Origin: Escherichia coli
GTDB taxonomy: Bacteria; Pseudomonadota; Gammaproteobacteria; Enterobacterales; Enterobacteriaceae
Reading direction: 5' to 3' (one strand)
Assembly: GCF_050920415.1 (NCBI RefSeq)
Contig: NZ_CP169309.1
Length of the DNA: 64,000 bases
This document shows, piece by piece, positions 551-37,536 of the stretch; the stretch's first letter is position 1, and each line of letters starts with the position of its first letter. A program made the position numbers and the translations under genes. Under the pieces are notes generated by a model. The model did no database searches and was not told where the DNA came from. It saw only the letters and a list, made by a program, of their open reading frames with translations.

Positions 551-2315
<1,765 letters not shown>

Positions 2316-2661
2316 AGTAAATAGCTGACTTATGGATGTGCTGGGGATTCTATGTATTTAGCGGTGGCTTTACCATTACTTTTCCCGTTTTTGACTTAAA
2401 TAGCTTCAGTTTGGTCTGATCTGCCGCTACATCTTCATTTTTTTTGTATTTTTATGCGATTCATTGAAACTCAGCCCCATTTTCAACTCTACATAAGCCA
2501 TACCGACCTTATCGGTATGATATTTTTTATCTATTTGAATTTTATAATTAAAAAATATTTTGTGTATAAAAATCATTCGGGTCGGATTGCTGCGAAAGAA
2601 ATGATACACTAGCACGTCAAAGTAAGTGCGTTATCAGTATTCAGGTAGCTGTTGAGCCTGG

Positions 2662-2673
2662 GGCGGTAGCGTG
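2662..2673 (+). promoter_or_regulatory. ops element (GGCGGTAGCGTG) within a JUMPstart-like leader of the waaQ operon; RfaH recruitment site
   Basis: Exact match to ops consensus GGCGGTAGnnTG, about 85 bp upstream of waaQ start, in the waaA-waaQ divergent intergenic region. Confidence 0.8.
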
Positions 2674-2756
2674 CTTTTTTTCTGCTTAACTAACCAGACA
2701 ATCACACAAAAGAGTCGCTAGTGGAAAAGCCATTTCGAAAAATCCTGGTCATAAAG

Positions 2757-3791
2757 ATGCGATATCATGGAGATATGTTATTAACTACTCCTGTCATCAG
2801 TACGCTCAAGCAGAATTATCCTGATGCAAAAATCGATATGCTGCTTTATCAGGACACCATCCCTATTTTGTCTGAAAACCCGGAAATTAATGCGCTCTAC
2901 GGGATAAGCAATAAAGGTGCGGGAACATTCGATAAAATTAAAAATGTGCTTTCGTTGATAAAAACTCTGCGCGGAAATAATTATGACCTGGTCATTAATC
3001 TTACGGATCAGTGGATGGTGGCGCTGCTGGTACGTTGTTTACCTGCACGGATGAAAATATCGCAACTTTATGGTCATCGGCAGCATGGCATTTGGAAAAA
3101 AAGCTTCACTCACTTAGCGCCAATACACGGTACACATATTGTTGAGCGGAATTTATCGGTCCTTGAGCCATTAGGTATTACCGATTTCTACACTGACACA
3201 ACAATGAGTTACGCCGAAGATTGCTGGAAGAAGATGCGCCAGGAATTAGATGCCCTGGGCGTAAAAGATCATTATGTTGTCATCCAACCGACAGCGCGTC
3301 AGATATTTAAGTGTTGGGATAACGATAAATTTTCTAAGGTTATTGATGCGCTGCAACAGCGAGGATATCAGGTTGTGCTGACCTGTGGGCCTTCGGCAGA
3401 CGATCTCTCTTGTGTAGATGAGATTGCGCAAGGTTGCAAAACGAAACCCATTACTGGCCTTGCAGGTAAAACACGTTTTCCTGAACTGGGTGCGTTAATT
3501 GATCATGCAGTGCTTTTTATTGGCGTAGATTCTGCGCCGGGACATATTGCAGCGGCAGTGAAAACGCCAGTCATTAGTCTATTTGGTGCAACGGACCACG
3601 TATTCTGGCGCCCCTGGACCGAGAATATTATTCAATTCTGGGCGGGGAATTATCAGAAAATGCCGACCCGGCATGAACTTGACCGCAACAAAAAATATCT
3701 TTCTGTTATCCCAGCGGAAGATGTGATCGCCGCTACGGAAAAGCTGTTGCCAGAAGATGCCCCTTCAGCTGACAGGAATGCACAATTATGA
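2757..3791 (+). CDS. waaQ: LPS core heptosyltransferase III (344 aa from ATG at 2757; a GTG at 2721 would give 356 aa)
   Basis: Translation MRYHGDMLLTTPVISTLKQNYPDAKIDMLL...; heptosyltransferase family 9 fold; first gene of waaQ operon. Confidence 0.85.
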   Translation: MRYHGDMLLTTPVISTLKQNYPDAKIDMLLYQDTIPILSENPEINALYGISNKGAGTFDKIKNVLSLIKTLRGNNYDLVINLTDQWMVALLVRCLPARMKISQLYGHRQHGIWKKSFTHLAPIHGTHIVERNLSVLEPLGITDFYTDTTMSYAEDCWKKMRQELDALGVKDHYVVIQPTARQIFKCWDNDKFSKVIDALQQRGYQVVLTCGPSADDLSCVDEIAQGCKTKPITGLAGKTRFPELGALIDHAVLFIGVDSAPGHIAAAVKTPVISLFGATDHVFWRPWTENIIQFWAGNYQKMPTRHELDRNKKYLSVIPAEDVIAATEKLLPEDAPSADRNAQL

Positions 3792-4912
3792 TCGTGGCGT
3801 TTTGTTTATATAAATATTTTCCATTTGGTGGGCTTCAACGTGACTTTATGCGTATTGCATCAACAGTTGCCGCTCGGGGCCACCATGTTCGGGTCTATAC
3901 GCAGTCGTGGGAAGGTGATTGCCCAAAAGCATTTGAGCTTATTCAGGTGCCAGTTAAGTCCCATACCAACCATGGACGCAATGCAGAGTATTATGCCTGG
4001 GTACAAAATCATCTCAAAGAGCATCCCGCAGATCGCGTTGTTGGGTTTAATAAGATGCCAGGTCTGGATGTTTATTTTGCTGCTGATGTTTGTTACGCCG
4101 AGAAAGTTGCGCAAGAAAAAGGTTTTTTATATCGTTTAACATCACGATATCGCCATTATGCCGCATTTGAGCGGGCGACTTTCGAGCAGGGTAAATCGAC
4201 GAAACTTATGATGCTGACCGATAAGCAAATCGCCGATTTCCAGAAGCATTATCAAACCGAACCTGAACGTTTTCAAATTCTTCCTCCCGGTATTTATCCG
4301 GACAGAAAATACAGCGAGCAAATCCCAAACAGTCGTGAAATTTATCGCCAGAAAAATGGCATAAAAGAGCAACAAAACTTATTACTGCAGGTTGGATCAG
4401 ATTTTGGCCGTAAAGGTGTGGATCGCTCAATTGAAGCTTTGGCATCGTTATCGGAATCATTACGTCACAATACGCTTTTATTTGTTGTTGGCCAGGATAA
4501 GCCGCGAAAATTTGAAGCGCTGGCAGAAAAGCTCGGCGTGCGGAGCAATGTGCATTTCTTCTCCGGTCGCAATGATGTGTCAGAATTAATGGCAGCCGCT
4601 GATTTATTACTGCATCCCGCTTATCAGGAAGCCGCGGGTATCGTTCTTCTTGAAGCAATCACTGCTGGATTACCTGTTTTAACAACTGCGGTATGTGGGT
4701 ACGCGCATTATATTGCGGATGCCAATTGTGGAACGGTTATCGCTGAACCATTCTCCCAGGAACAGTTAAATGAAGTTTTACGTAAAGCGTTAACTCAGTC
4801 TCCATTACGAATGGCCTGGGCGGAGAATGCTCGCCATTATGCCGATACTCAGGATTTGTATAGCCTGCCAGAGAAAGCCGCAGATATCATTACAGGTGGT
4901 TTAGATGGTTGA
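3788..4912 (+). CDS. waaG: LPS core glucosyltransferase I, 374 aa
   Basis: 374-aa ORF overlapping waaQ stop (ATGA); GT4-like C-terminal region ...[26 protein letters not shown]... Confidence 0.9.
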
Positions 4913-5702
4913 ATTAAAAGAGCCGCTTGCCACACTTTGGCGTGGTAAAGATGCTTTTGAAGAAGTCAAAAAACTGAATGGCGAGGTCTTTCGTGAACTC
5001 GAGACGCGTCGCACATTACGCTTTGAACTGGCCGGGAAAAGCTATTTTCTTAAATGGCACAAAGGGACGACATTAAAAGAGATTGTAAAAAATCTACTCT
5101 CATTACGGATGCCCGTTTTGGGCGCAGACAGAGAGTGGCACGCTATTCATCGCCTGAGTGATGTTGGCGTTGATACAATGAAGGGCATTGGGTTTGGTGA
5201 AAAAGGGTTAAATCCATTAACTCGCACATCATTTATTATTACCGAAGATCTCACTCCCACGATTAGCCTTGAAGATTATTGTGCTGATTGGGCAGTCAAC
5301 CCGCCTGATATACGTGTAAAGCGTATGCTGATTACACGAGTGGCAACCATGGTGCGTAAAATGCACGCCGCAGGGATAAATCACCGCGACTGCTACATTT
5401 GCCACTTTTTGCTTCATTTACCATTTACTGGCCGGGAAGATGAATTAAAAATTTCGGTTATCGATCTGCATCGGGCACAGATACGTGCAAAAGTACCGCG
5501 CCGTTGGCGCGATAAAGACCTGATTGGTTTATATTTCTCATCAATGAATATTGGCCTGACGCAAAGAGACATATGGCGATTTATGAAGGTTTATTTTGGG
5601 ATGCCTTTGCGAAAAATATTGTCTCTTGAACAGAACTTATTGAACATGACAAGCGTTAAGGCCGAGCGTATTAAAGAGCGAACACAACGTAAAGGATTAT
5701 AA
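4905..5702 (+). CDS. waaP: LPS core heptose(I) kinase, 265 aa
   Basis: 265-aa ORF overlapping waaG by 8 bp; kinase-like motifs ...[17 protein letters not shown]... Confidence 0.9.
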
Positions 5703-5738
5703 AAATATTTATCAGTATGTACTGGAACTAACTTCATT

Positions 5739-6674
5739 ATGACTATTTATTTTATAAACTGGGTTGCAGATTATGAATTAAAAATGATCCAGTACCTGAA
5801 AAAAAAGTACAAGATAAAAAACATAACGACACCAAAAAAATACAACTGGATTAATAAGAAAATCTCAAAAATAGGGATGGATAATGCATGGCTGGGGCGA
5901 TTATTCATCAAACATTACCTAAATGATATTAAAAAAGATGACATAATTATCTTTAATGACAGTGTTATTAATAAAGGTATCAATAAACAAATATTAAAAA
6001 ACATTAACTGTCATAAAGTTTTGCTTCTAAGAAATACTGTTAGCGAAGATTTTATTTTTGATAACGCCAATTATTTCGATGTTATATATGATTTTGAACA
6101 TAGATTTATAGGGAATGAAAAGACCAAAGCAATAGAACAATTTTTTCCTATAGGGATGGAGGAGATTACGAATTATAACTTATCTGACAAAAATAACAGT
6201 CAGCCAATATGTTTCTTTCTTGGTCGAGATAAAGGGCGTCTTCAAATAATTAATGAGTTAGCCGATAGACTAGCAACACTAGGATGTAAGTTAGATTTTA
6301 ATGTTGTCAAAGATAAGACATCATCACCGACTTCAAAGTATTTGATTGAAAAACAAATGCCTTATGAAGAGAATATTAGAAGAACATTAAATGCTAATAT
6401 AATTGTTGATATAACTAAAGAAAACCAATCTGGTTGGACTCTTCGTATACTTGAGGCGCTATTTTTCAATAAGAAATTAATCACCAATAATATAAATATA
6501 CTTACTTCAGAAATCTATAGTGAGTCTCGCTTTTTTATAATAGGTCATGATGATTGGGATAAGTTAGAGTATTTTATTAACTCATCTGTTAAACCAATGG
6601 ATTATGATAGTTTATATAAATTCAGTCCAGATAAAATGATGTCAACGATTGTTTCTGATTTTATAGATAAATAA
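5739..6674 (+). CDS. waaS: LPS core biosynthesis protein WaaS (K-12 core-type specific), 311 aa
   Basis: AT-rich 311-aa ORF at the waaS position of the K-12-type core cluster. Confidence 0.75.
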
Positions 6675-6717
6675 AACCGTTAAAACAGTGAGTTTTACTC
6701 AATTAATGAGATCTTCT

Positions 6718-7797
6718 ATGAAAATAGCGTTTATCGGCGAAGCCGTTTCTGGATTTGGCGGCATGGAAACAGTCATCCGTGATGTCATTAGCAACTTCAG
6801 GCAACAACATATCCAAAGTGAAATGTTTTTCTTTTGTCGTAATGACAAAATGGATAAGGGATGGCTAGAGGGTATACAGTACTCGTGTTCATTTTCCAAT
6901 ATTCGTTTAGGCTTTTTACGTCGGGCGAAACATATTTATGCTTTAAGCAAATGGCTGCGGGATTATCAACCGGATATCGTTATTTGTATTGATGTGATCT
7001 CCTGCCTGTTTGCCGCAAAAGCACGTAAAAAATCAGGAATTGATGTGCCAGTATTTTCATGGCCACATTTTTCTTTAGATCACAAAAAACATGCTGAATA
7101 TATCACCTGTGCCGACTATCATTTAGCAATCAGCTCTGGCATTAAACAGCAAATGATTAATCGGGGTGTAGCAGAATCGACGATAAATGTTATTTTTAAT
7201 CCCGTCGAAGCCAAAGATTCAGTCATTCCCGCGCCCGAGGAAGCCGAAACGGCAACGTTCATTTATGTTGGGCGTATGAAATTTGAAGGCCAGAAGAGAG
7301 TTAAAGACCTGCTTGATGGCTTATCACAAGCGCAAGGTAACTGGAAACTCCATGTATTGGGTGATGGTTCCGATTTTGAAAAATGCCAGGCTTATAGTAG
7401 AGAACTAAATATTGATGATCGAATTGTCTGGTATGGTTGGCAACAACATCCCTGGGAATTGGTCCAGCAAGATATTAAAAAAGTGAGTGCATTATTGCTC
7501 ACGTCATCTTTTGAAGGTTTCCCAATGACCCTACTTGAAGCCTTGTCATGGGGGATTCCTTGTATCAGTGCCGATTGTGTCTCCGGGCCTGCTGACATTA
7601 TTCAACCTGATGTCAATGGTCATCTGTATCAACCGGGAGATATTGCTGGTTTTGTAACTCTTCTAAATAAATATATAGCAGGTGAAATTCATATCGAACA
7701 TGAAAAAATTCCTGCGTCGATCGATAAGTTTTACCAATCGAAGTATTACGATAGATTACATAAGATAATTATTTCTGCTATTTCCCGGAGGAAATAA
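6718..7797 (+). CDS. waaB: LPS core UDP-galactose:(glucosyl)LPS alpha-1,6-galactosyltransferase, 359 aa from internal Met
   Basis: Translation MKIAFIGEAVSGFGGMETVIRD...; GT4 family E-x7-E region ...SSFEGFPMTLLEALSWGIPCIS... Confidence 0.85.
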   Translation: MKIAFIGEAVSGFGGMETVIRDVISNFRQQHIQSEMFFFCRNDKMDKGWLEGIQYSCSFSNIRLGFLRRAKHIYALSKWLRDYQPDIVICIDVISCLFAAKARKKSGIDVPVFSWPHFSLDHKKHAEYITCADYHLAISSGIKQQMINRGVAESTINVIFNPVEAKDSVIPAPEEAETATFIYVGRMKFEGQKRVKDLLDGLSQAQGNWKLHVLGDGSDFEKCQAYSRELNIDDRIVWYGWQQHPWELVQQDIKKVSALLLTSSFEGFPMTLLEALSWGIPCISADCVSGPADIIQPDVNGHLYQPGDIAGFVTLLNKYIAGEIHIEHEKIPASIDKFYQSKYYDRLHKIIISAISRRK

Positions 7798-8816
7798 TGC
7801 AGCAGGTGTTTTTCCAGGAAACTGAGTTTCTTAATTCAGTTATTGATTATAATCATAAAGTAGAAACAGAAAATCTTTGTCTGGACATCGCTTATGGAAC
7901 TGACAAAAATTTTCTATTTGGTTGCGGAATTTCGATTGCTTCAATATTAAAGTATAATGAAGGAAGTCGATTGTGTTTCCATATTTTTACTGATTATTTT
8001 GGTGATGATGATCGTAAGTATTTTGATGCCCTGGCGTTGCAGTATGAAACCAGAATTAAAATATATCTGATTAATGGTGATCGACTGCGCTCATTGCCTA
8101 GCACAAAGAATTGGACTCATGCAATATATTTTCGTTTTGTTATTGCAGATTACTTTATTAATAAGGCGTCTAAAGTCCTTTATCTGGATGCAGATATCAT
8201 TTGTCAGGGGAATATTGAGCCACTAATTAATTTCTCATTTCCTGGCGATAAAGTCGCAATGGTTGTTACAGAAGGGCAAGCTGACTGGTGGGAAAAACGC
8301 GCCCATTCGTTAGGTGTTGTGGGAATTGCTAAAGGTTACTTTAACTCGGGTTTTTTATTGATTAATACTGCCCAATGGGCGGCTCAGCAGGTTTCTGCCC
8401 GAGCCATTGCAATGCTAAATGAGCCAGAAATAATCAAAAAGATAACACATCCTGATCAGGATGTATTAAATATGTTGCTGGCAGATAAACTTATTTTTGC
8501 TGATATTAAATATAACACCCAGTTTAGCTTAAATTATCAACTTAAAGAAAGCTTTATAAACCCAGTAACCAACGATACTATTTTTATCCATTATATCGGA
8601 CCAACCAAGCCCTGGCATGATTGGGCCTGGGATTATCCTGTATCACAAGCCTTTATGGAGGCAAAAAATGCTTCGCCATGGAAGAATACGGCGTTGCTGA
8701 AACCGAACAATAGCAATCAATTAAGATATAGCGCAAAACATATGCTTAAAAAGCATAGATATCTAAAAGGATTTAGCAACTATCTTTTTTATTTTATTGA
8801 AAAGATAAAGCATTAA
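7797..8816 (+). CDS. waaO: LPS core alpha-1,3-glucosyltransferase (GT8 family), 339 aa
   Basis: 339-aa ORF; GT8-type motifs ...LYLDADIICQG..., ...HYIGPTKPW... Confidence 0.85.
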   Translation: MQQVFFQETEFLNSVIDYNHKVETENLCLDIAYGTDKNFLFGCGISIASILKYNEGSRLCFHIFTDYFGDDDRKYFDALALQYETRIKIYLINGDRLRSLPSTKNWTHAIYFRFVIADYFINKASKVLYLDADIICQGNIEPLINFSFPGDKVAMVVTEGQADWWEKRAHSLGVVGIAKGYFNSGFLLINTAQWAAQQVSARAIAMLNEPEIIKKITHPDQDVLNMLLADKLIFADIKYNTQFSLNYQLKESFINPVTNDTIFIHYIGPTKPWHDWAWDYPVSQAFMEAKNASPWKNTALLKPNNSNQLRYSAKHMLKKHRYLKGFSNYLFYFIEKIKH

Positions 8817-8855
8817 AACTGGGAAACTATAAAGTAATGATATAAGGGTAGCATT

Positions 8856-9872
8856 GTGGACTCATTTCCTGCCATAGAGATAGATAAAGTTAAAGCCTGG
8901 GATTTTCGGCTTGCTAATATAAATACTTCTGAATGTTTAAATGTTGCCTATGGTGTCGATGCTAATTATCTTGATGGTGTAGGTATTTCCATCACATCAA
9001 TTGTCCTAAATAATCGACATATTAATCTTGATTTTTATATTATTGCTGATGTTTATAATGATGGTTTTTTTCAAAAAGTTGCAAAGCTTGCAGAGCAATA
9101 CCAATTAAGAATCACGTTATATAGAATTAACACTGATAAGCTCCAGTGCTTGCCTTGTACACAGGTCTGGTCAAGAGCAATGTACTTCCGTTTATTTGCA
9201 TTTCAATTATTGGGTTTAACGCTTGATCGTTTGCTTTATCTTGATGCAGATGTTGTTTGTAAAGGCGATATTAGCCAACTATTGCATCTGGATTTAAACG
9301 GAGCGGTTGCTGCTGTTGTTAAAGATGTTGAGCCAATGCAGGAAAAGGCGGTATCCAGGTTGTCTGATCCTGAATTACTTGGGCAGTACTTTAATTCTGG
9401 TGTCGTTTATTTAGATTTAAAAAAATGGGCTGACGCAAAACTAACAGAAAAAGCGTTGTCTATTCTTATGAGTAAAGATAATGTTTATAAATACCCTGAT
9501 CAGGATGTTATGAATGTCTTACTGAAAGGGATGACAATATTTTTGCCTCGTGAGTACAATACAATTTATACAATTAAAAGTGAATTAAAAGATAAAACAC
9601 ATCAAAACTATAAAAAGCTGATTACAGAAAGTACTCTTCTTATTCATTATACAGGTGCAACTAAACCGTGGCACAAATGGGCAATTTATCCATCGGTAAA
9701 ATACTATAAAATAGCTTTAGAAAATTCGCCATGGAAAGATGACTCGCCACGAGATGCAAAATCAATTATTGAATTTAAAAAAAGATATAAACATCTTTTA
9801 GTGCAGCGTCACTATATCTCAGGAATTATAGCAGGAGTCTGTTATCTTTGCCGAAAATATTACCGTAAATAA
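8856..9872 (+). CDS. waaJ: LPS core alpha-1,2-glucosyltransferase (GT8 family), 338 aa
   Basis: 338-aa paralog of the preceding GT8 ORF (...LYLDADVVCKG..., ...HYTGATKPW...). Confidence 0.85.
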   Translation: MDSFPAIEIDKVKAWDFRLANINTSECLNVAYGVDANYLDGVGISITSIVLNNRHINLDFYIIADVYNDGFFQKVAKLAEQYQLRITLYRINTDKLQCLPCTQVWSRAMYFRLFAFQLLGLTLDRLLYLDADVVCKGDISQLLHLDLNGAVAAVVKDVEPMQEKAVSRLSDPELLGQYFNSGVVYLDLKKWADAKLTEKALSILMSKDNVYKYPDQDVMNVLLKGMTIFLPREYNTIYTIKSELKDKTHQNYKKLITESTLLIHYTGATKPWHKWAIYPSVKYYKIALENSPWKDDSPRDAKSIIEFKKRYKHLLVQRHYISGIIAGVCYLCRKYYRK

Positions 9873-9889
9873 CATTTAACTGGTTTATT

Positions 9890-10588
9890 ATGATTCAGAA
9901 GAGCAAGATCAAAGACTTGGTTGTTTTTACCGATGAAAACAATTCAAAGTATCTCAATGTATTAAATGACTTTCTTTCTTATGATATTAATATCATCAAA
10001 GTTTTTCGTTCTATAGATGATACAAAAGTCATGCTTATTGATACCGATTACGGTAAATTGATACTTAAAGTTTTTTCTCCTAAAGTTAAACGCAACGAAC
10101 GTTTCTTTAAATCTCTTTTAAAGGGAGATTATTATGAACGCCTTTTTGAGCAAACTCAAAAAGTGCGTAACGAGGGGCTACATTCTCTCAATGACTTCTA
10201 TTTGTTAGCAGAACGGAAAACATTACGTTTTGTCCATACTTACATCATGCTTATCGAATATATCGATGGCGTTGAGTTGTGTGATATCCCCGATATTGAT
10301 GAAACGTTAAAAAATAAAATTCAACAATCAATCCGTTCATTGCACGAACATGGTATGGTATCTGGTGATCCTCACCGTGGTAATTTTATTATTGAAAATG
10401 GTGAAGTACGCATTATTGATCTTTCAGGAAAACGGGCATCTTCACAACGTAAAGCGAAAGATCGTATTGATCTAGAACGACATTATGGTATTAAGAATGA
10501 GATTAAAGATCTCGGTTATTATCTTTTAGTTTATCGTAAAAAAATACGTAATCTTATGCGCCGCTTGAAAGGAAAGCCAGCACGATAA
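9890..10588 (+). CDS. waaY: LPS core heptose(II) kinase, 232 aa
   Basis: 232-aa ORF with kinase-like ...HEHGMVSGDPHRGNFII...; position after waaJ. Confidence 0.85.
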   Translation: MIQKSKIKDLVVFTDENNSKYLNVLNDFLSYDINIIKVFRSIDDTKVMLIDTDYGKLILKVFSPKVKRNERFFKSLLKGDYYERLFEQTQKVRNEGLHSLNDFYLLAERKTLRFVHTYIMLIEYIDGVELCDIPDIDETLKNKIQQSIRSLHEHGMVSGDPHRGNFIIENGEVRIIDLSGKRASSQRKAKDRIDLERHYGIKNEIKDLGYYLLVYRKKIRNLMRRLKGKPAR

Positions 10589-10659
10589 AGTAAAAGTCTT
10601 ACATTTAAACGTCTTCGTCAGAACATTTCTATGCGGAGTTATTATTTCACAGGTTTATC

Positions 10660-11511
10660 ATGAAGAATATTAGATACATTGACAAAAAAGATGTTGAAAA
10701 CCTGATAGAAAGTAAAACGTCTGATGATGTTATTATTTTTCTTTCCGGCCCCACATCGCAAAAAACACCATTGTCAGTTCTGCAGACAAGGGATGTTATT
10801 GCTGTCAATGGTTCCGCGCAATATCTACTAAGTCATAATATTATTCCCTATATTTATGTACTTACTGATGTTCGCTTCTTGCATCAGCGTCGTGATGATT
10901 TTTATAAATTTAGCCAGAGAAGTCGTTATACCATAGTAAACGTCGACGTTTATGAACACGCTTCCAAAGAAGATAAACTTTATATCCTCCAAAACTGCCT
11001 CGTATTACGGTCCTTTTACCGCCGAGAAAAAGGCGGTTTGATAAAGAAGATAAAATTTAATATATTAAGTCAGATTCATAAAGAACTGCTGATCTCTGTA
11101 CCGTTGTCTAAAAAAGGTCGTCTGGTCGGATTTAGCAAGGACATCAGTCTTGGTTATTGCTCATGCCATACTATTGCCTTTGCTGCAATTCAAATAGCAT
11201 ATACACTTAAGTATGCGCGGATTATTTGTTCTGGTCTTGATTTAACTGGTAGTTGTTCTCGTTTCTATGACGAAAGTAACAATCCTATGCCCTCGGAATT
11301 GAGTAGGGATTTGTATAAAATCTTGCCATTTTTCCGTTTTATGCGTGATAATGTAGAAGATATTAATATTTATAATTTGTCAGATGATACGGCTATTTCT
11401 TACGATGTAATTCCATTTATTAAACCTCTCGATATCAGTACAGAAGAGTCAAAGGATAAGATAAGAAAAAAAATGGAATATAAAGCTTCAACTGATTCTT
11501 ATGCTAATTAA
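10660..11511 (+). CDS. waaZ: LPS core biosynthesis protein WaaZ (K-12 core type), 283 aa
   Basis: 283-aa AT-rich ORF at waaZ position. Confidence 0.75.
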   Translation: MKNIRYIDKKDVENLIESKTSDDVIIFLSGPTSQKTPLSVLQTRDVIAVNGSAQYLLSHNIIPYIYVLTDVRFLHQRRDDFYKFSQRSRYTIVNVDVYEHASKEDKLYILQNCLVLRSFYRREKGGLIKKIKFNILSQIHKELLISVPLSKKGRLVGFSKDISLGYCSCHTIAFAAIQIAYTLKYARIICSGLDLTGSCSRFYDESNNPMPSELSRDLYKILPFFRFMRDNVEDINIYNLSDDTAISYDVIPFIKPLDISTEESKDKIRKKMEYKASTDSYAN

Positions 11512-11543
11512 TCATCCTGAAACTAAAATTATATGGTATAAAA

Positions 11544-12617
11544 ATGCGTTTAGGAACTTTTCACAAAAAGAAAAGATTTTATATAAACAAAATCAAGATT
11601 AATTTTCTTTCTTTTTTATTTCGTAAAAAAATCAATAACCAAGTTACAGATCTCGCACAAGTTAAATCATGCCTTATCATTCATGATAATAATAAACTCG
11701 GTGATTTAATTGTATTAAGTTCGATTTATCGTGAGCTTTATAGTAAAGGAGTTAAAATAACCATTCTCACAAATAGAAAGGGAGGGGAGTTTCTCTCTAA
11801 CAATAAAAATATATTTGGATTCTGTATTAAAGAATCAACAGGTTTCCTTAAAATGCTTACTCTATGTAAGCATTTGCGGGATTTACAGTTCGATATTGTA
11901 TTAGACCCCTTTGAAACTATGCCCTCATTTAAGCATAGCTTAATATTATCAAGTTTAAAAGATTCTTACATTCTGGGTTTTGATCAATGGTATAAGCGTT
12001 ACTATTCATTTTACCATCCCCATGATGAATGTTTAAAAGAACATATGAGTACACGAGCAATAGAAATACTGAAGCATATTTATGGTGAGGGTGAATTTTC
12101 CACCGACTACGACTTGCATTTGCCTGTAGATGTTGAAAATAAAATAATAGATTTTATTGGGAATACAAGGATAGTCATCATTAACCCATTAGGTGCAAAA
12201 AAAATATGCCGACTTACGTTTGAGCAAATAAAAGTTATATATCAAGAAGTGAAAGTACAATTTGAGAATTATCGAGTGATATTTACTGGGTTGCCGCAAG
12301 ATTTATTGACAATACCAATACCTGAAATCGAAACACTACCATTTGATGAGTTTATTTATACCGTTGCGTTGACCAGGTATAGTGATTTTGTCATTTCTGT
12401 TGATACAGCTCTTGTTCATATCGCTGCGGCTTATCATAAACCAACGCTTGCATTTTATCCTAATTCACGCACTCCGGAATATCCCTCACATTTAATTTGG
12501 TCCCCAAATAATCATCGGTCTATACAAATAGTATCCCCAACATTTACGGTAAAAGATATCGATCCTGAAACTTTAACTGATTCAGTAAAGAGATTAAGTT
12601 GTATAGATAAGAAGTGA
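11544..12617 (+). CDS. waaU: LPS core heptosyltransferase-family protein WaaU (RfaK), 357 aa
   Basis: 357-aa ORF, last gene of the long waaQ operon, heptosyltransferase-like fold. Confidence 0.8.
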   Translation: MRLGTFHKKKRFYINKIKINFLSFLFRKKINNQVTDLAQVKSCLIIHDNNKLGDLIVLSSIYRELYSKGVKITILTNRKGGEFLSNNKNIFGFCIKESTGFLKMLTLCKHLRDLQFDIVLDPFETMPSFKHSLILSSLKDSYILGFDQWYKRYYSFYHPHDECLKEHMSTRAIEILKHIYGEGEFSTDYDLHLPVDVENKIIDFIGNTRIVIINPLGAKKICRLTFEQIKVIYQEVKVQFENYRVIFTGLPQDLLTIPIPEIETLPFDEFIYTVALTRYSDFVISVDTALVHIAAAYHKPTLAFYPNSRTPEYPSHLIWSPNNHRSIQIVSPTFTVKDIDPETLTDSVKRLSCIDKK

Positions 12618-29715: not shown

Positions 29716-30488
29716 GCGTTTTTCTCCCTCGAATTCTCATTATGGTCACCAGGCAGGCGGGTAATGCGTGCATGGCGAGCCTGATCTTCATCGAATCGTT
29801 TCATGGTGGTGTGAACAAAGCTAAGGTGCGCCATCATTGCTTTACGCGCCCCGTCAGCATCACCGGCAAAAATGGCGTCAATGACAGCCTGATGTTGTTC
29901 GGTCAGTTGTGAAAAAACCGGGGGCACCAGATACATCCGCTGACGGCTATGCTTCACTGAGGATTGCAGGACATCGAAGAAACCACGCATGGTTTGCAGC
30001 AACACAATGTTATGTGAGGCTTCGGCAATCGCCAGATGAAAACGAACGTCCGCTTGTGAGGCGAGATCCGGGTCTTCGCTGAGTGTTGCTTCAAAGCAAA
30101 GCTGAATTTTCTCTTTTTCGCCAGGCGTGGCGCGCATTGCTGCATGCCACGCGGTGCTGGCTTCTATGGCGTAGCGGGCTTCCAGAATATCGAAACTGTA
30201 ATCCGGATCATCGGCCATCAGCGTTTTCAACGGCTGGACGATGTTTTGCTCCGACCATGTGTCATGACGCCAGCGAATAAACGTCCCGCCGCCGCGTCGA
30301 CTGAGCAACACACCTTCGCTCACCAGTTTCGCCAGCGCCTCGCGCAGTGAATTTCGCGATACACCGAGTTGCATTGCCAGTTGACGTTCAGCGGGCAATT
30401 TCATGCCCGCCTCCAGGTTTTTTTCATCAATCAGCGCCCGCACACGATCGGCAACCTCGTCTGACAGGCGTCTGGGTAAAACAATCAT
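29712..30488 (-). CDS. lldR: GntR/FadR-family lactate operon regulator LldR, 258 aa from internal Met
   Basis: [52 protein letters not shown]... (wHTH). Confidence 0.9.
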
Positions 30489-32143
30489 TAAGGAATCATC
30501 CACGTTAAGACATAGGCCTGAAGCGTGGTGATCACGCCCACCATACAGGTGAAGATCAGGCTGTGTTTGACAGTAAAGCGGAACAAATCAGACTCTTTGC
30601 CCACCAGTCCTACCGCCGCACAGGCGATAGCGATAGATTGCGGAGAGATCATTTTGCCGGTGACACCACCGGTGGTGTTGGCAGCAACCAGCAACAGATC
30701 AGAAACGCCAATTTGTTGTGCGGCGGTAGCCTGCAAAGCGGCAAACAAAGCATTAGATGACGTATCCGACCCGGTCAGGAATACCCCAAGCCAGCCGAGG
30801 AACGGCGAGAAGAAGGTGAATGCATGACCGGTGTGCGCCAGTGCAAGCGCCAGTGTTGATGACAGTCCGGAATAGTTCGAAATAAAGGCGAATGCCAGCA
30901 CCATACCGATGGAGTAGATAGGCAGAGCCAGTTCTTTTAGTGTGCTGCCGAAGGTGCTGATAGCGTCAGATGGTTTCATCTTCAGCCAGACAATCGAGAG
31001 CAGGGCAGCAAACAGAATGGCGGTACCGGTAGCAGAGAACCAGTCGAACTTAAACACGGCGGCATACGCTGTCGCTTCGCTGACCACTGGCGGCATACGG
31101 GCAACCAGTTTATCGAGGTACGGCACCGGAATATTGATCACCCACTCATACAGCGCGCCACCCGATGCGAACAGGGCTTTAAACGGCGGGATACTCCACA
31201 GTGTTACGGTAGCGGTCAGGAACAGGAACGGTGTCCAGGCACGTAATACCTGACCCGCGGTGTAACCGGTGTGGGCCAGCGTCATATCAACCTGTGACGC
31301 CCCCAAATCACCAAAACGGAATACGCGCACCGGCTGCCAGCGTTTGAGGAACAGTGTCAGGCAGAGCAGCGATACCAGCGAAGAGATAATGTCTGGCAGT
31401 TCCGGCCCAATGAAGTTAGAGCTGAGGTATTGAGCGATGGCAAACGAACCGCCCGCAACCACGACCGCAGGCCAGGTTTCTTTGATACCGCGCCAGCCGT
31501 CCATAATCGCCATAATCCAGAACAGCACGATAATGGTCATAAACGGTAGCTGACGCCCCACCATCTGGCCAATCTCAAAGCTGTCGATGCCTGTTACCTG
31601 CCCGGCGACCAGAATCGGAATACCCATCGCACCAAATGCCACTGGCGCGGTGTTAACAATCAGGCACAGCCCGGCGGCGTACAGCGGTTTAAAGCCCAGA
31701 CCGACCAGCAATGCGGCGGTAATTGCTACCGGTGCGCCAAATCCTGCGGCCCCTTCGAGGAACGCGCCGAAACAGAAACCGACGATCAGCATTTGCAGGC
31801 GCTGGTCAGGGGTTATCGAAAGAATAGACGAGCGGATGATGTCAAACTGCCCGGTTTTCACCGATATCTTATAGACGAACACCGCTGCAATAATGATCCA
31901 CGCGATGGGCCACAAACCGTAGAAGAAACCATAAATCACCGAGGCTAGCGCGTTAGCGACCGGCATTTTATAGAACAGCAAAGCCACGGCAAGGGCGATT
32001 GCCACCGTCCACGAGGCGGCGACGTATCCTTTCAGTTTGAGCTTAATCAGCGCAAAGAAGAAAAACAGGATGGGAAGCGATGCTATCAGGCTGGAAAGCC
32101 AGATATTCCCGGCGGGATCATAGTTTTGTTGCCAGAGATTCAT
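30488..32143 (-). CDS. lldP: L-lactate permease, 551 aa from internal Met
   Basis: [32 protein letters not shown]...; polytopic membrane protein; first gene of lldPRD. Confidence 0.9.
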
Positions 32144-32399
32144 TGCAGGTCTCCTGCAGTCCACACACGCCGCGTGATGAGTCTGTTGCTCATCTCCGTG
32201 TCACACGTTGTGTAAAAGTGGCACTGCCAATTATGTTGTGTAGGGATAATGACAATGAATAGTTAACTAAATGTTATGCATTGGCAACATTGATGTGAGT
32301 TTTAATTGGGGAACTGTGAACCAGAGGTCAGATAAGCGAAGAATTGGTAGGGCCAATTTGGAGTGAGGTAGATGTCTGTAAAGAAAAGGGCAATTCCCA

Positions 32400-32559: not shown

Positions 32560-35500
32560 TTACCACTGAATACCGGCACCGAGTGCGGCGGAGTATTCAC
32601 CCTGGCTATTGGTACTACCTTGTAATTTGTAGACCCAACGACCATTGGCGCTCACCATCGACACACCTAAAGCAACAGCCGATTCGCCGTTGTAAGTACC
32701 ACCACCAATAGAGGCCATGCTGGCTCCCGGCGTGTAAGCCTGCGGCAGACCGGTCATTGCCATTGCGGAAGCGATACCACCGCTCAGCTTGCTTTCGGTT
32801 TTGGACAGTTTGTTATCCATCTCAACCATGCGCTGATCGGTGTATTGCTTCGTTTCCTGCACACTTTGCTTCAACTGTGCATAGTTCACTGCGTCGTTGT
32901 TGTTCACGCCCGCAGAAACGTTGCTGATGCGAGTCGTACCGCCATTGCCGCCACCGAGAGTAATGTTGCTGTAGTCGATAGAGCCATCAGCTTTGGTGTC
33001 GTAGCGAACGCCACCTGCTTCGGAAGACTTCAGTTGCGAAACGTTAACCGCATCGGTGGCATTAACACCGGCAGCAACGTTGGTGATACGGCGCTGGTTG
33101 GTAGAAGAACCCACAGAGATTGTGTTTTCTTCGTTGGCCACGGAGCCTGTACCCAGAGCGACGCTGTTGTCAGCGGCAGCAATGGATCCAGAACCAATCG
33201 CCACACTGTCTTTACCCTGGGCGTTAGCATCTACGCCATCGGTGTTGGTCTTGAAGTACTTGGTGCTACCTGTGGTTACGATATCGCCAATACCGTTCTC
33301 GATATTGGTCACGCGAGTATCCAGATTCGTCACCTGATTGTTCAGGCTAGTAATGCTCTGGGTATTCTGGGAAACCTGCGCATCCGTTACTTTCAATTGA
33401 CCCACGTTGACCGCATCGGTATCCGCCGAACCAGCCGCGACGTTGGTGATCTGACGTTGACCGTCTTCGCTACCTACGGAGAATTCACCCACAGAGTTCT
33501 GCGGTGTATCCATGTTGTAGGCGGTGTAGCCAGTTTGTGCGCCACGGGTAGTTTGAGAACCATTACCCATTGCAATGCTGTTTGCATGGTTTGCACGCGC
33601 GTTGCTACCGATAGCAATACCGTTAATCGCATCTGCCAGAACTAAAGTGTTCAGGCCGATACCAATACCTGCATTACCATTAACGATGGTTTTTGCGCCC
33701 ATTGCCAGCGAGTCTTCACCGACTGCCAGTGAGTCTTCAGCCGTTGAGTTGGCGTGATAGTATTTGGTCGGCGTGGTGGCTACTGCACCAATCGCATTCT
33801 GCAACTGGCGAACCGTAACGGCATCATGGGCTTCAGAACCATCGGCAACATTGATGATTTGACGATATTTACCATCGTCACCGATCGACAATGCGCCAAG
33901 CAGTTCACCGTCAGTTGTGTCATAACCAATCACAACACCTTCTTCCGATACGCTGGTGTCACGAGAACCTTTAACTATTACACGGCTGGAAACGGAACTG
34001 CTACCCAGGGCGATACCCGTCTCAACTTCGCTGCGGCTGTCCTGACCAATGGCTACGCTGCTGGCTTTGGAAGCAACAGAGTTATAACCCACAGCGGTAG
34101 AGCCAATGCCTGCTGCGCTGGCATCGGTGAAGGTTAAACCGGTGTCATTGGTACGCACATAGTTAATACCTGCACCATTTTCTTCGATGTAGGTTTCACT
34201 GGTGTTACCGGCAAGCTGATTGATGACTTCGCTGTTCTGCTGGATCAGCATATTGGTGTTAAACAGCTGAGAACCGTTGATAGCATCGGTGCTACCTTCA
34301 CCAATGTTACCATCAGCAACGTTTGTGATAATGCTGGCCTTGCCGTCATGACTGGCGTTGTAAGCCCCTTCGCCGTTATTGGCGGTCGCATCCCACAGCA
34401 GCGCGTTCTCATCAAGCGCATCCAGAGCGTCACCGACATTGTTGTACTCGGCATTTGCAATGGTGTAAGTCGGCGCAGTGATAGCACCGTCAGCGTTAAC
34501 TTCTGCATCACCGCCCAGAGCATCAGCGATATATTTGTTAGTGGTATAGAGTTGTGAGCCGTTAATCGCGTCGCTGCTGGTGGCAGAGATTGCACCATTT
34601 GCGACGTTAGTAATCTTACTGGCAGTGTTATCTACCCCACGACCGGCGCTGAATGCACCAGCACCGTCATTGGCTGTTGCATCCCAGAGCAGGGCGTCAT
34701 CCAGCGTGGTATCGATCGCTTCCAGTGCGTCACCAACGTTGCTGTAACTGCCGCCAGCGATGGCATAAGTCGGTGCGGTGATACTGCCATCCGCATTCAC
34801 CACAGCGTTCCCGCCCAGAGCATCGGCAATGTAGTCACTAACGCCATAAAGCTGTGAACCGTTAATAGCGTCGCTACTGGTGGACGAGACTGCACCGTTT
34901 GCAATATCAGTGATTACACTGGGATCATTATTAATGCCGTGTTTGGCGCTGAATTTGCCTGCGGTTGTATCCCAGAGCAGAGCATCACCGAGAGAATCAC
35001 TAAATGAAGTGTTAATCGCAGCCAGAGCATCCCCGACGTTAGTATAGTCAGTGCCGCCAATACTATAGGTTGGCCCGGTTAATACACCTGTATCGCTAAT
35101 ATCAGCACCACCACCCAGATAGGACGTGAATGAATCAGCCAAACCGTAAAGTTGTGAGCCATTTATGGCGTCAGTGCTGTCAGAGGAGACTATGCCAGCT
35201 TGTACGTTGCTGATTTTGTTGGTGGCGTTAGTGCCGTGTGCAGCGGTGAATGCGCCTGCGGCATCGTCCCATTTCAGGGCGTCTTCACCGAGGTTAGTCA
35301 CCGTATCAGTCAGGTTAGTGATATTGGTGGTGTTAGTCGCCACGTTATCGTTAGTGGTTTTCAGCTGAGAACCGTTAACGGCGTCGGTGCTGGTGTCAGA
35401 GAGCTCGCCAGCGGTGACATTAGTGATTTTGCTGGTGACATCGGTGCCGTGTGCGGCGCTGAACGCGGTGCCATTCCACAGCAGGGCATCATCATTGAGA

Positions 35501-37536
35501 CCGTCTATGGCATTGGTCAGGTTAGTGATATTGCTGGTGTTGGTGGCGATGTTGGTGGTGTTGGTAGCGATATTGGTGGTGTTTGCCGCCACATCGTCCT
35601 TGGTCGCTTTCAGCTGAGAACCGTTAACGGCGTCGGTGCTGGTGTCAGAGAGCTCGCCAGCGGTGACGTTAGTGATTCTGTTGGTGGCGTTAGTACCGTG
35701 TGCAGCGGTGAATGCGCCTGTGGCGTCGTCCCATTTCAGGGCGTCTTCACCGAGGTTAGTCACCGTATCAGTCAGGTTAGTGATACTGGTGGTGTTGCCA
35801 GCCACTTCGCTCGTCAGGTTAGTGATGTTGGTGGTGTTAGCCGCCACATCGTCCTTGGTCGCTTTCAGCTGAGAACCGTTGACGGCGTCGGTGCTGGTGT
35901 CAGAGAGTTCGCCAGCGGTGACATTGGTGATTTTGCTGGTGACGTCGGTGCCGTGAGCGGCGCTGAACGCGGTGCCATTCCACAGCAGGGCATCATCATT
36001 GAGACTATCTACGGCATCGGTCAGGTTAGTGATATTGGTGGTGTTGCCAGCCACTTCGCTCGTCAGGTTAGTGATGTTGGTGGTGTTAGCCGCCACATCG
36101 TCCTTGGTCGCTTTCAGCTGAGAACCGTTGACGGCGTCGGTGCTGGTGGCTGAAAGGTCGCCAGCGGTAACGTTAGTGATTTTGCTGGTGGCATCTGTAC
36201 CATGTGCCGCACTATATCCCCTTTTAAGGTTGTCCCATTGTATCGTATTCGTGTTTAGATCCGCTAAGGCGTCGCCAACATTGCCATAAATACCATTTTT
36301 CAGTCTGTAATTCGGGGAAGTCACCACGCCCTGCGAATTGACGGTCGCTCCTCCACCAAGATTATCCGCTACTGACTTACTAATAGCATAAAGCTGTGAT
36401 CCATTGATGGCATCAGTACTGTCAGTGTCGATATCACCTTTTGCCATATTGACAATTTTTCGCTGAGCTGTTGTGTTACCCACGGAGACAGTATCCGCTT
36501 CAGTCGCGACAGAATCAGCACCCAGAGCAATTGAATTTTTACCTTGAGCAGTGGCCTGAGCACCAATTGCAATGCCATTTTCTAAACCGGCATAACTGCC
36601 TTGTCCAAGAGCAATGGCATTTGCCCCACCGGTAATACTCCCATTTCCCAGTGCGATTGCATTTACGCCGTCAGCTTTATTCCCCTGACCGATGGCAATG
36701 GCACCCGCAGCGATTGCCTGGCTTTGATTACCCAGAGCAATCGTATTATCGGTATTTGCAATACTCCCGTAGCCCAACGCGATACTGTTAAGCCCATTTG
36801 CCTCAGCTTTAGTACCCACTGCCGTTGCATTTTCAGCGGCTTCGGTCTCAGCGCCAACCGCAACCGCGTTTGCGGCGCTGGCAATGGACAGTCTACCTAA
36901 TGCAAGGCTGTCTTCACCACTAGCAGCACTCTCTCTACCTGCGGCAATGGAATTAGTTCCTGACGCCTTTGCCAGTCTCCCGAATGCAAGAGCATCCATA
37001 GCACTTGCTACTGTATCCTTGCCCAACGCTATGGTGCCTTCAGCTGTAGCTTGTGCAGAATTCCCCAGTGCAAGGGTATAATCGCTGGTCGCTTTAGCCG
37101 CACTGCCGATGGCGATTGAACGGCTACCCGTGGAAACCGTTGATTGCCCTAAGGCGACCGATCTTTCTCCTGACGAATTACTTGAGAAGCCAATTGCGGT
37201 ACTTCCCACCCCGGCATTAGCTCTTGCACCGACAGCAACACTCCCGCTACCCGTTGTGCCTGTACCCATTGTATCTGATGAGGCGACGGCCTCTTTACCA
37301 ATAGCAATCCAGTTATCACTCAGTGGCGTTTCGCCTGCAATTTCTTCTGCGCTTTTACCACCGTCAAGTGAAACCGAAGCATAGGCTCCAACTGATGAGA
37401 GTAACCCACCCGCAACCAGGGCAGAAATTAACAGCTTACTGCGCCCGCTCTTTTTGCCACGGCTCTTCGCCGTTTCGCTGGCAACGCTATAGCTGCCCGT
37501 CGCCGGATTCCAGATAACTTTAAATATTTTGTTCAT
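32560..37536 (-). CDS. upaG: Trimeric autotransporter adhesin (YadA-like; UpaG/EhaG-type), 1658 aa
   Basis: N-terminal extended signal peptide [18 protein letters not shown]...; long Gly/Ala/Ser/Thr/Asn-rich passenger with YadA-like head and neck repeats; C-terminal membrane anchor ...[31 protein letters not shown]. Confidence 0.85.
35150..36230 (-). repeat. In-frame tandem repeats (about 250 bp / 83 aa, roughly 4 copies) inside the adhesin passenger domain
   Basis: Protein repeat unit ...[61 protein letters not shown]... recurs; identical antisense ORFs in the track (35165, 35387, 35636) reflect the nucleotide repeats. Confidence 0.8.

Follow-up and report, generated by a model that had tools for sequence, protein, structure and literature searches.

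The waaA-waaQ spacer and the LPS-core operon

The stretch of DNA analysed here (hereafter, the window) comprises 64 kb of an Escherichia coli genome (contig NZ_CP169309.1, assembly GCF_050920415.1) and carries, close to its beginning, the divergent genes waaA and waaQ, which are separated by a 405-bp spacer with a JUMPstart element located between them. The genes on the two sides of this spacer are the following:

1038-2315, minus strand: waaA, Kdo transferase, the divergent neighbour (NF004385, 905 bits; RefSeq annotation)
2721-3791, plus strand: waaQ (rfaQ), LPS core heptosyltransferase III, GTG start (NF007742, 679 bits vs. a cut-off of 467; same start as in RefSeq PGAP)
2721-12617, plus strand: ten-gene core operon of the K-12 type, waaQ-G-P-S-B-O-J-Y-Z-U (NCBIfam matches; collinear with K-12; G+C profile)

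The original prediction, which was made from the sequence alone, had placed waaQ downstream of the element, and this assignment holds: the open reading frame at 2721-3791 is RfaQ/WaaQ based on its NF007742 match, and RefSeq agrees. The RefSeq annotations of K-12 and of E. coli MFDS1022581 (NZ_CP169399.1; 100% identical to the first 25 kb of the window, vs. 95.8% for the next-best genome) name the waaQ region in the same way, and the latter genome has the same rfaQ GTG start, which in the window is preceded by a weak AAGAG (2710-2714). The operon follows the K-12 core gene order, with 86.6-98.1% identity to K-12 per gene, and its ten genes span 9.9 kb at 31-47% G+C vs. ~53% in the flanks, while waaL-waaC-waaF-hldD converge on it from the other side. 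For waaG, waaJ, waaU and waaL there was no NCBIfam match above the cut-off, and the names of these four genes follow those that RefSeq gives to the collinear stretch of K-12. The low G+C content of the waa operon fits the AT-rich, H-NS-bound and Rho-sensitive operons that require RfaH (PMC9765446). That is, what lies downstream of ops is a long, AT-rich envelope operon of the horizontally acquired type with weak ribosome-binding sites.

Sequence and structure of the ops and JUMPstart elements

The ops element is said to go back to Bailey et al. in 1997 and Artsimovitch and Landick in 2002, and the JUMPstart element reportedly to Hobbs and Reeves in 1994. The corresponding features in the window are:

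2635-2673, plus strand: JUMPstart (RF01707; 38 of 39 columns invariant across core types)
2642-2660, plus strand: JUMPstart stem-loop, in which CAGGU (2642-2646) pairs with GCCUG (2656-2660) (Rfam structure line, RNAalifold)
2662-2673, plus strand: ops, GGCGGTAGCGTG (exact match; same as ops12 of PMC5995543; invariant in five E. coli core-type variants)
2672, plus strand: expected RNA polymerase pause at ops U11 (K-12 Term-seq 3' ends at the orthologous G10/U11)

The original prediction of a match to the ops consensus was borne out, with the 12-mer GGCGGTAGCGTG present exactly, on the plus strand, and as the sole exact copy in the window, where ~0.008 copies would be expected on both strands of the 64 kb based on simple arithmetic. 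Allowing up to one mismatch, three matches were found in the window vs. 0.23 expected from shuffled sequences, and the consensus GGCGGTAGNNTG was matched twice vs. 0.09 expected; the 12-mer at 30722, which is antisense inside lldP and without a JUMPstart, was rejected as another RfaH unit. The site at 2662-2673 conforms to the 12-nt consensus GGCGGTAGnnTG: C3-G8 are unaltered, positions 11-12 are TG, and all bases needed for RfaH recruitment (C3, G4, G5, T6, A7 and G8) and for the pause (T11 and G12) are present when compared to Zuber et al. 2018 (PMC5995543), who described the RfaH:ops structure and whose ops12 oligonucleotide is identical to GGCGGTAGCGTG. The likeness to the ops sites of RfaH-controlled operons discussed in the same study extends to the arrangement: the same 12-mer, on the non-template strand of a 5' leader, once per operon. 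Known ops systems have a long, AT-rich envelope-polysaccharide operon downstream and RfaH in the genome, and the waaQ site has both.

The ops sequence forms the 3' end (i.e., the 3' third) of the 39-nt JUMPstart element, the RNA of which constitutes Rfam family RF01707 (Weinberg et al. 2010; PMC2864571). The comparison with known JUMPstart sequences, which the original prediction had proposed as a check, yielded a match of 55.2 bits vs. a gathering score of 35 (E = 6.4e-10; Rfam 15 covariance model); the match is complete (model positions 1-38 of 38) and is the sole Rfam match across the whole window. Features shared with the family are, in addition to the full-length match, the 5-bp stem-loop with a covarying A-U pair, ops at the 3' end and a polysaccharide cluster downstream. 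Relative to the model, the window element has a one-base insertion in the loop, and its 5' half reads CAGTATTCAGG instead of CAGTGCACTGG, the commoner form elsewhere; both the insertion and this 5' half are traits of the waaQ subclass of JUMPstart loci. Therefore, the element, which had been called an exact ops/JUMPstart, is exact in its ops half but departs from the commoner form in its 5' half. Similarly, the coordinates assigned to it (2641-2680) contain ops and the hairpin but omit the first 6 nt of JUMPstart, which starts at 2635, and include 7 nt past ops that reach into a T tract (the window sequence at 2641-2684 is TCAGGTAGCTGTTGAGCCTGGGGCGGTAGCGTGCTTTTTTTCTGC).

In the window, the JUMPstart stem consists of five standard pairs. 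One of them, 2643:2659, varies between A-U, U-A, G-C and G-U among the at least 120 pattern loci described below and the alignment of waaQ leaders, whereas the other four pairs were fixed by the search pattern and thus carry no covariation information. The folding energy of JUMPstart alone is close to that of shuffled sequences (z = +0.3). The 3' base of the stem is located 12 nt before the pause position U11, and it may be that this hairpin, 11-12 nt behind U11, tunes the ops pause.

Transcription start and position of ops in the leader

It had also been claimed that the element occupies the expected leader position, and we indeed found ops 47 nt upstream of the waaQ GTG (2721), on the same strand. 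Transcription of waaQ probably starts at 2617, because the small RNA RirA of K-12 reportedly has the same 5' end as the mRNA of waaQ (PMC5736990, PMC8745692) and MG1655 rirA can be aligned to the window. With this start, the leader would be 104 nt long and ops would be at +46 to +57, 45 nt past the start; that is, ops lies between the probable start and the GTG codon, on the plus strand like waaQ. Upstream of this start, the following element could be recognized:

2602-2610, plus strand: candidate extended -10 element TGaTACACT for waaQ/rirA (read from the sequence; 7 nt before the probable start at 2617)

TGaTACACT is invariant among the five core types and is part of a conserved block at 2567-2616 (92% invariant), and we infer that it may serve as the waaQ promoter. 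No good -35 element was found upstream of it and a simple sigma-70 scan called no plus-strand promoter; both the promoter and the start are transferred from K-12, at 96% sequence identity. A simple terminator scan called a single hairpin and T run (2499-2519), which lies in a variable part of the spacer and is not conserved in K-12.

Conservation within E. coli and across genera

Of 5426 complete E. coli genomes, 5424 carry the 405-bp spacer, mostly at only ~79% identity. The 40-mer at 2640-2679, which covers the hairpin and ops, is found once per genome in 5421 of the 5426, with zero mismatches over the aligned stretch in 4906 records. The same picture emerged from an alignment of the five core-type variants, in which invariant positions make up 46% of the mid-spacer vs. 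38 of 39 in JUMPstart and 12 of 12 in ops; the sole change within JUMPstart (A to G at 2643) turns the A-U stem pair into G-U. The conservation of the site is, hence, extreme.

To place the element in a broader context, a DNA-pattern scan of 100,044 species genomes (one per species) was carried out, and this returned at least 120 JUMPstart-pattern loci, ~110 of which are from Enterobacterales or Aeromonas and ~10 from GC-rich, non-enterobacterial genomes. The latter were rejected as chance matches (~9 such matches were estimated), lacking both the CAGTG flank and the TG at positions 11-12. CGTG occupies ops positions 9-12 in 90 of the at least 120 pattern loci listed. In 17 of those listed, a WaaQ homologue starts 43-70 nt after ops G8, and an 18th locus of the waaQ type, from Cedecea davisae, has a near-identical leader and no WaaQ match in the available sequence. 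Altogether, the ~18 waaQ-type loci span about nine genera, with JUMPstart preceding a WaaQ homologue at a nearly constant distance (43-70 nt) in Escherichia, Citrobacter, Kosakonia, Silvania, Shimwellia, Pluralibacter, Cedecea, 'Enterobacter sp. Ag1' and Pectobacterium. Other JUMPstart loci that we sampled are upstream of rfbB-, wza-, kpsM-, wecA- and neuD-type genes; the element thus sits in the 5' UTR of polysaccharide-synthesis clusters, here upstream of waaQ. It had been proposed that the element confirms both transcription direction and operon identity independently of the coding calls. Our results uphold the former, together with the RfaH type of the leader, but not the latter, since only ~18 of at least ~110 genuine JUMPstart loci precede waaQ. 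That is, ops/JUMPstart marks an RfaH-type leader and the direction of transcription, not which operon follows.

The site as an RfaH loading site

The window does not include rfaH, but NZ_CP169399.1, the sole genome 100% identical to the window (over 25 kb), carries an intact copy, the protein product of which matches K-12 RfaH at 162 of 162 positions; among 5426 E. coli genomes, 5425 have the gene. The ops site of K-12 waaQ (rfaQ) is the orthologue of the window site, with the sole local difference being a run of seven T in the window vs. six in K-12 just downstream. Accordingly placed data from K-12 are available: Term-seq (PMC7815308) revealed strong 3' ends at 3808184 and 3808183 (62,669 and 116,952 reads, respectively), which map to rirA nt 55/56, i.e., ops G10/U11, and the sequence strings in the supplement agree with this mapping. 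These ends are consistent with an ops pause in vivo, given that ops acts as a consensus pause at which the transcript ends in U11 (PMC5995543). According to the same study, a small hairpin (C3:G8) arises in the non-template strand of the paused bubble and flips T6 out, and G4, G5, A7 and G8 are essential for RfaH recruitment while G12 is essential for the pause. Further, RfaH occupies the rfa/waaQ operon in ChIP experiments with CFT073 and K-12 and remains with the polymerase over the whole transcription unit (PMC9765446), and rfaH deletion leads to a truncated LPS core, with the rfa/waaQ operon being RfaH-dependent (PMC6358824).

By analogy with this K-12 and CFT073 literature on the orthologous site, pausing, RfaH binding and RfaH dependence would be expected at the window site as well. 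Specifically, RNA polymerase at ~56 nt would pause with ops U11 (2672) at the RNA 3' end, and the non-template GGCGGTAGCGTG in the open bubble would fold into the small hairpin and expose T6 and adjacent bases to the RfaH N-terminal domain. RfaH would then bind, its C-terminal domain would refold, and the protein would ride the polymerase across all ten waa genes and exclude NusG. In doing so, it would suppress pausing as well as Rho-dependent and some intrinsic termination in the AT-rich, H-NS-prone DNA, and it would aid the recruitment of ribosomes to genes with weak Shine-Dalgarno sites. Distal expression of the waaQ-waaU unit would, in this scheme, depend on the ops site, as the literature on the orthologous site suggests.

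Based on the exact 12-mer, the full Rfam match, the critical bases, the position, the gene context, the conservation, the presence of RfaH and the K-12 data, we are highly confident that GGCGGTAGCGTG at this location is an ops element within JUMPstart, in the 5' leader of the waaQ LPS-core operon, and a working RfaH loading site, and we found no evidence opposing this explanation. It is important to note that the waaQ ops/JUMPstart is an already known element in a known place and, as such, is nothing new to biology. Three points were absent from the original prediction, namely, an orthologue of RirA around the site, the K-12 Term-seq ends at ops G10/U11, and a longer hairpin with a T run. The two sections below take up these points.

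The RirA small RNA

RirA is said to have been reported as an RfaH-interacting sRNA of E. coli K-12 by Klein et al. in 2016 (JBC). The ops/JUMPstart site of the window lies within its orthologue:

2617-2690, plus strand: RirA orthologue (MG1655 b4760), 5' part of the waaQ leader (NC_000913.3 annotation and alignment)

In MG1655, rirA (b4760) is annotated from 3808238 to 3808166 in the waaA-waaQ spacer, and all of its 73 nt align to the window copy, which is 74 nt long due to a single extra T (T7 vs. T6). The place at the 5' end of the waaQ leader is the same as in K-12. The 5' end that RirA and the mRNA of waaQ have in common is also covered by reviews of RirA (PMC5736990, PMC8745692).

An alternative view of the locus is that the stretch acts mainly as RNA: RirA, when abundant, would bind RfaH and RNA polymerase via ops and titrate or inactivate RfaH. 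This would mean negative feedback on LPS synthesis and would add to the role of the DNA rather than replace it. The annotation of b4760 on the orthologous 73 nt, from which the window differs by one T, speaks for such a role, as do the reports, in reviews by its discoverers, that overexpressed RirA has the effect of an rfaH deletion and that the ops sequence is required for binding (PMC5736990, PMC6358824, PMC8745692), and the abundance of a short RNA from the waaQ leader in vivo, evident from K-12 Term-seq. On the other hand, the support comes from overexpression in one laboratory, the ops bases are mostly paired in the predicted RNA fold, which is awkward for single-strand recognition, and Term-seq lists 3' ends in the leader solely at nt 55/56 and none at nt 73. 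We consider this role of RirA a serious possibility, albeit one with a somewhat less than even chance of being correct. The disagreement over the 3' end deserves a comment in its own right: RirA is annotated as 73 nt in K-12 but its abundant Term-seq ends are at nt 55/56 instead, with read counts that resemble those of true terminators nearby. The ends at nt 55/56 could stem from paused complexes that persist for very long or from an RNA of ~56 nt that has been released, and the mismatch with the annotated 73-nt RirA is worth the attention of specialists.

A predicted extended hairpin in waaQ leaders

The loading of RfaH onto the paused polymerase, our preferred explanation for the site, concerns ops as DNA; the RNA copy of ops is, in addition, predicted to participate in a longer structure:

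2619-2638, plus strand: predicted 5' arm of an extended hairpin (minimum-free-energy folds, alignment pairing, RNAalifold on a subset)
2675-2681, plus strand: T7 tract, 3' flank of the extended hairpin, directly after ops and C13

In the fold predicted once the polymerase has moved beyond ops and copied the T run, the latter is matched by AAAG (2619-2622), while ops G4-G12 plus CUU and ops G2-C3 have their partners in AAGUGCGUUAUC (2624-2635) and GU (2637-2638), respectively. The resulting hairpin (2619-2681; -22.7 kcal/mol) has a long, interrupted stem with the JUMPstart stem-loop at its tip and U7 at its end. Such a structure would make ops RNA the 3' arm of a leader attenuator, with the hairpin and U7 acting as an intrinsic terminator for polymerases without RfaH and being read through by RfaH-modified ones. 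The same 12 bases would then work twice, once as single-stranded DNA loading RfaH and subsequently as RNA terminating the unmodified complexes, possibly giving rise to RirA-type RNA.

Several comparisons are in line with this possibility. The long hairpin is the predicted minimum-free-energy fold in 15 of 20 distinct waaQ leaders, and when the window-derived structure is imposed on their alignment, 82.5% of the cells are paired vs. 42-51% with slid partners, with four hairpin pairs changing on both sides (including G:C13 to A:U13); the shuffle control of this pairing is weak because the ops columns are invariant. The 5' arm varies between genera with pairing kept, e.g., UGCG with wobble pairing in Escherichia and CACG with Watson-Crick pairing in Cedecea, Shimwellia and 'Enterobacter sp. 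Ag1'. RNAalifold recovered the hairpin with 19 pairs, three of them compensatory, when the input was limited, post hoc, to 15 sequences from seven genera. The outer stem and the T run occur or vanish together, both being missing in Kosakonia and Pectobacterium. Further, waaQ leaders differ from other JUMPstart loci in upstream complementarity to ops (-11.3 vs. -7.6 kcal/mol) and in the number of T in the 10 nt after ops (6.1 vs. 3.5), with the caveat that Mann-Whitney p-values for waaQ vs. other loci overstate significance since orthologous leaders are not independent. Finally, Adams et al. (PMC7815308) gave the leader an intrinsic-terminator score of 6.28 and no Rho dependence, and RfaH reportedly lowers termination at some intrinsic terminators (PMC2871177).

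Other observations argue against a terminator. For wild-type K-12, the Term-seq tables list no 3' end within the U tract (MG1655 380816x-380817x), and the simple terminator scan mentioned above did not call the extended hairpin. Folding energies are unexceptional compared to shuffled sequences, with z = -1.0 for 2600-2690, -1.6 for 2617-2690 and 0.05 for the whole leader, and thus provide no support for structure. With all 20 waaQ leaders, RNAalifold lost the outer stem and returned only the JUMPstart hairpin and a 3-bp hairpin internal to ops, and the subset in which it was recovered had been picked after the folds were seen. In R1/R3-type E. coli leaders, one mid-stem pair is broken (U to G at 2631). 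Moreover, the leaders are orthologous and not independent, and other constraints keep the ops arm invariant, so that the support is mostly one-sided. No alternative, anti-terminator RNA fold was found in the waaQ leader.

On balance, there is moderate support for a long, terminator-like hairpin with a T run behind it, predicted with ops RNA as its 3' arm in waaQ leaders from seven or more enterobacterial genera. We view it as rather unlikely, on the other hand, that this hairpin operates as an attenuator, and similarly doubtful that ops has the double function outlined above. EAR/epsC RNA, lambda nut/put and LoaP leaders may serve as a working analogy only: these, too, combine a structured leader with a factor that makes the polymerase resistant to termination, but the recruiting signal at waaQ is single-stranded DNA, not RNA. 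The arrangement can also be likened to leader attenuators, i.e., a terminator-like hairpin and a U tract ahead of a long polysaccharide operon, with the difference that the terminator role is only predicted here.

Implications

A last explanation, that GGCGGTAGCGTG at 2662-2673 is a functionless chance 12-mer, draws on the existence of unbound ops-like sites within coding regions (34 of 42 in CFT073; PMC9765446) and of a second GGCGGTAGNNTG in the window, inside lldP, yet it has next to no probability given the ~0.008 exact copies expected, the full JUMPstart match around the site (E = 6.4e-10), its placement in the right leader on the right strand, and the conservation in 5421 of 5426 E. coli genomes and ~9 genera, with the Rfam match and the conservation effectively refuting it.

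Hence, we favor the explanation that the site is an RfaH loading site in the waaQ leader. If the extended hairpin were indeed an attenuator, this would explain how unproductive transcription of the operon by polymerases without RfaH is avoided and where a short, RfaH-titrating RNA originates; the pairing of ops RNA with an upstream segment and the T run, seen in waaQ leaders only, is one thread for specialists to follow. For annotation purposes, the element marks the start and the direction of an RfaH-dependent LPS-core transcription unit, and the strain keeps the standard control circuit, with the same ops, the same RfaH and an orthologue of RirA.

Transcript 3' ends and the T run in the waaQ leader

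In MG1655, Term-seq places 3' ends with very high read counts at 3808183/3808184 on the minus strand (PMC7815308). These positions are equivalent to window 2671-2672 and correspond to G10 and U11 of the ops element in the waaQ leader (that is, nt 55/56 of the transcript), while the same Term-seq listing contains no 3' end at the annotated terminus of the sRNA RirA (nt 73) and none in the U tract. The T run located 3' of ops (window 2675-2681) is seven T long here vs. six in K-12 and five in R1/R3-type strains, and a one-base deletion at about 2691, about 10 nt downstream of the run, brings the length back. Among the complete E. coli genomes searched (5403 matching records), the 74-nt leader segment with the seven-T run has a match of at least 99% only in the source genome. 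The seven-T run could be genuine and private to this genome, or it could be an assembly error at a homopolymer.

The start codon of waaQ

RefSeq PGAP starts waaQ at GTG 2721 (356 aa), and the MG1655 record at an ATG equivalent to 2757 (344 aa). Codons 1-12 show solely synonymous or conservative changes across core types, and the alignment with waaQ homologues of other genera begins at residue 1. Judged from sequence, the 356-aa form looks right.

Other features of the spacer and the neighboring region

Three further features were noted in the window:
2499-2519 (+), a hairpin of 8 bp with ATATTTTTTA after it, in the central, variable part of the waaA-waaQ spacer, upstream of the waaQ promoter
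30722-30733 (+), the second match to the ops consensus, GGCGGTAGCCTG, antisense within lldP (L-lactate permease; 30488-32164, -)
32560-37536 (-), a 1658-aa ORF adjoining the lld operon

The hairpin is probably fortuitous because it is not conserved in K-12. In the same spacer of E. coli JMF1 (NZ_CM139231.1), an IS1 element lies at 1790-2487, upstream of the conserved promoter/JUMPstart block. No JUMPstart surrounds the ops-like match in lldP, which is probably one of many unbound coding-region sites of the type described for CFT073, where many such sites occur in coding regions and are unbound (PMC9765446). The large ORF carries trimeric-autotransporter-adhesin repeats, with Ata/EmaA/YadA-type matches that all fall below the family cut-offs.

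Divergence of the core locus

E. coli MFDS1022581 matches window 1-25000 at 100% identity, and the next best of 5426 complete genomes reaches only 95.8% over 25 kb. The lineage is unusually divergent at this locus. Identity to K-12 is 86.6% for waaY and 91.3% for waaZ vs. 94-98% for their neighbors, which suggests that this stretch (9890-11511) is a recombination patch inside the K-12-type core cluster.

JUMPstart loci outside waaQ leaders

An enterobacterial-type JUMPstart (CAGTG flank and full ops) was also found on short contigs assigned to Gram-positives, which looks like contamination or mis-binning:
L036 and L037, contigs of Arthrobacter sp. GMC3
L073, an Erysipelotrichia MAG

A separate JUMPstart subclass occurs in Enterobacter and Mangrovibacter (scan loci L025, L034 and L046). 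Its loop is short (GGTAGC[C/G]TAAGCCA), and CCTTTTT(T)ACACAC comes after it. In L034, ops pairs with an upstream segment at -18.5 kcal/mol, the strongest among the matches listed. This is a further terminator-like layout around ops, in loci other than waaQ leaders.
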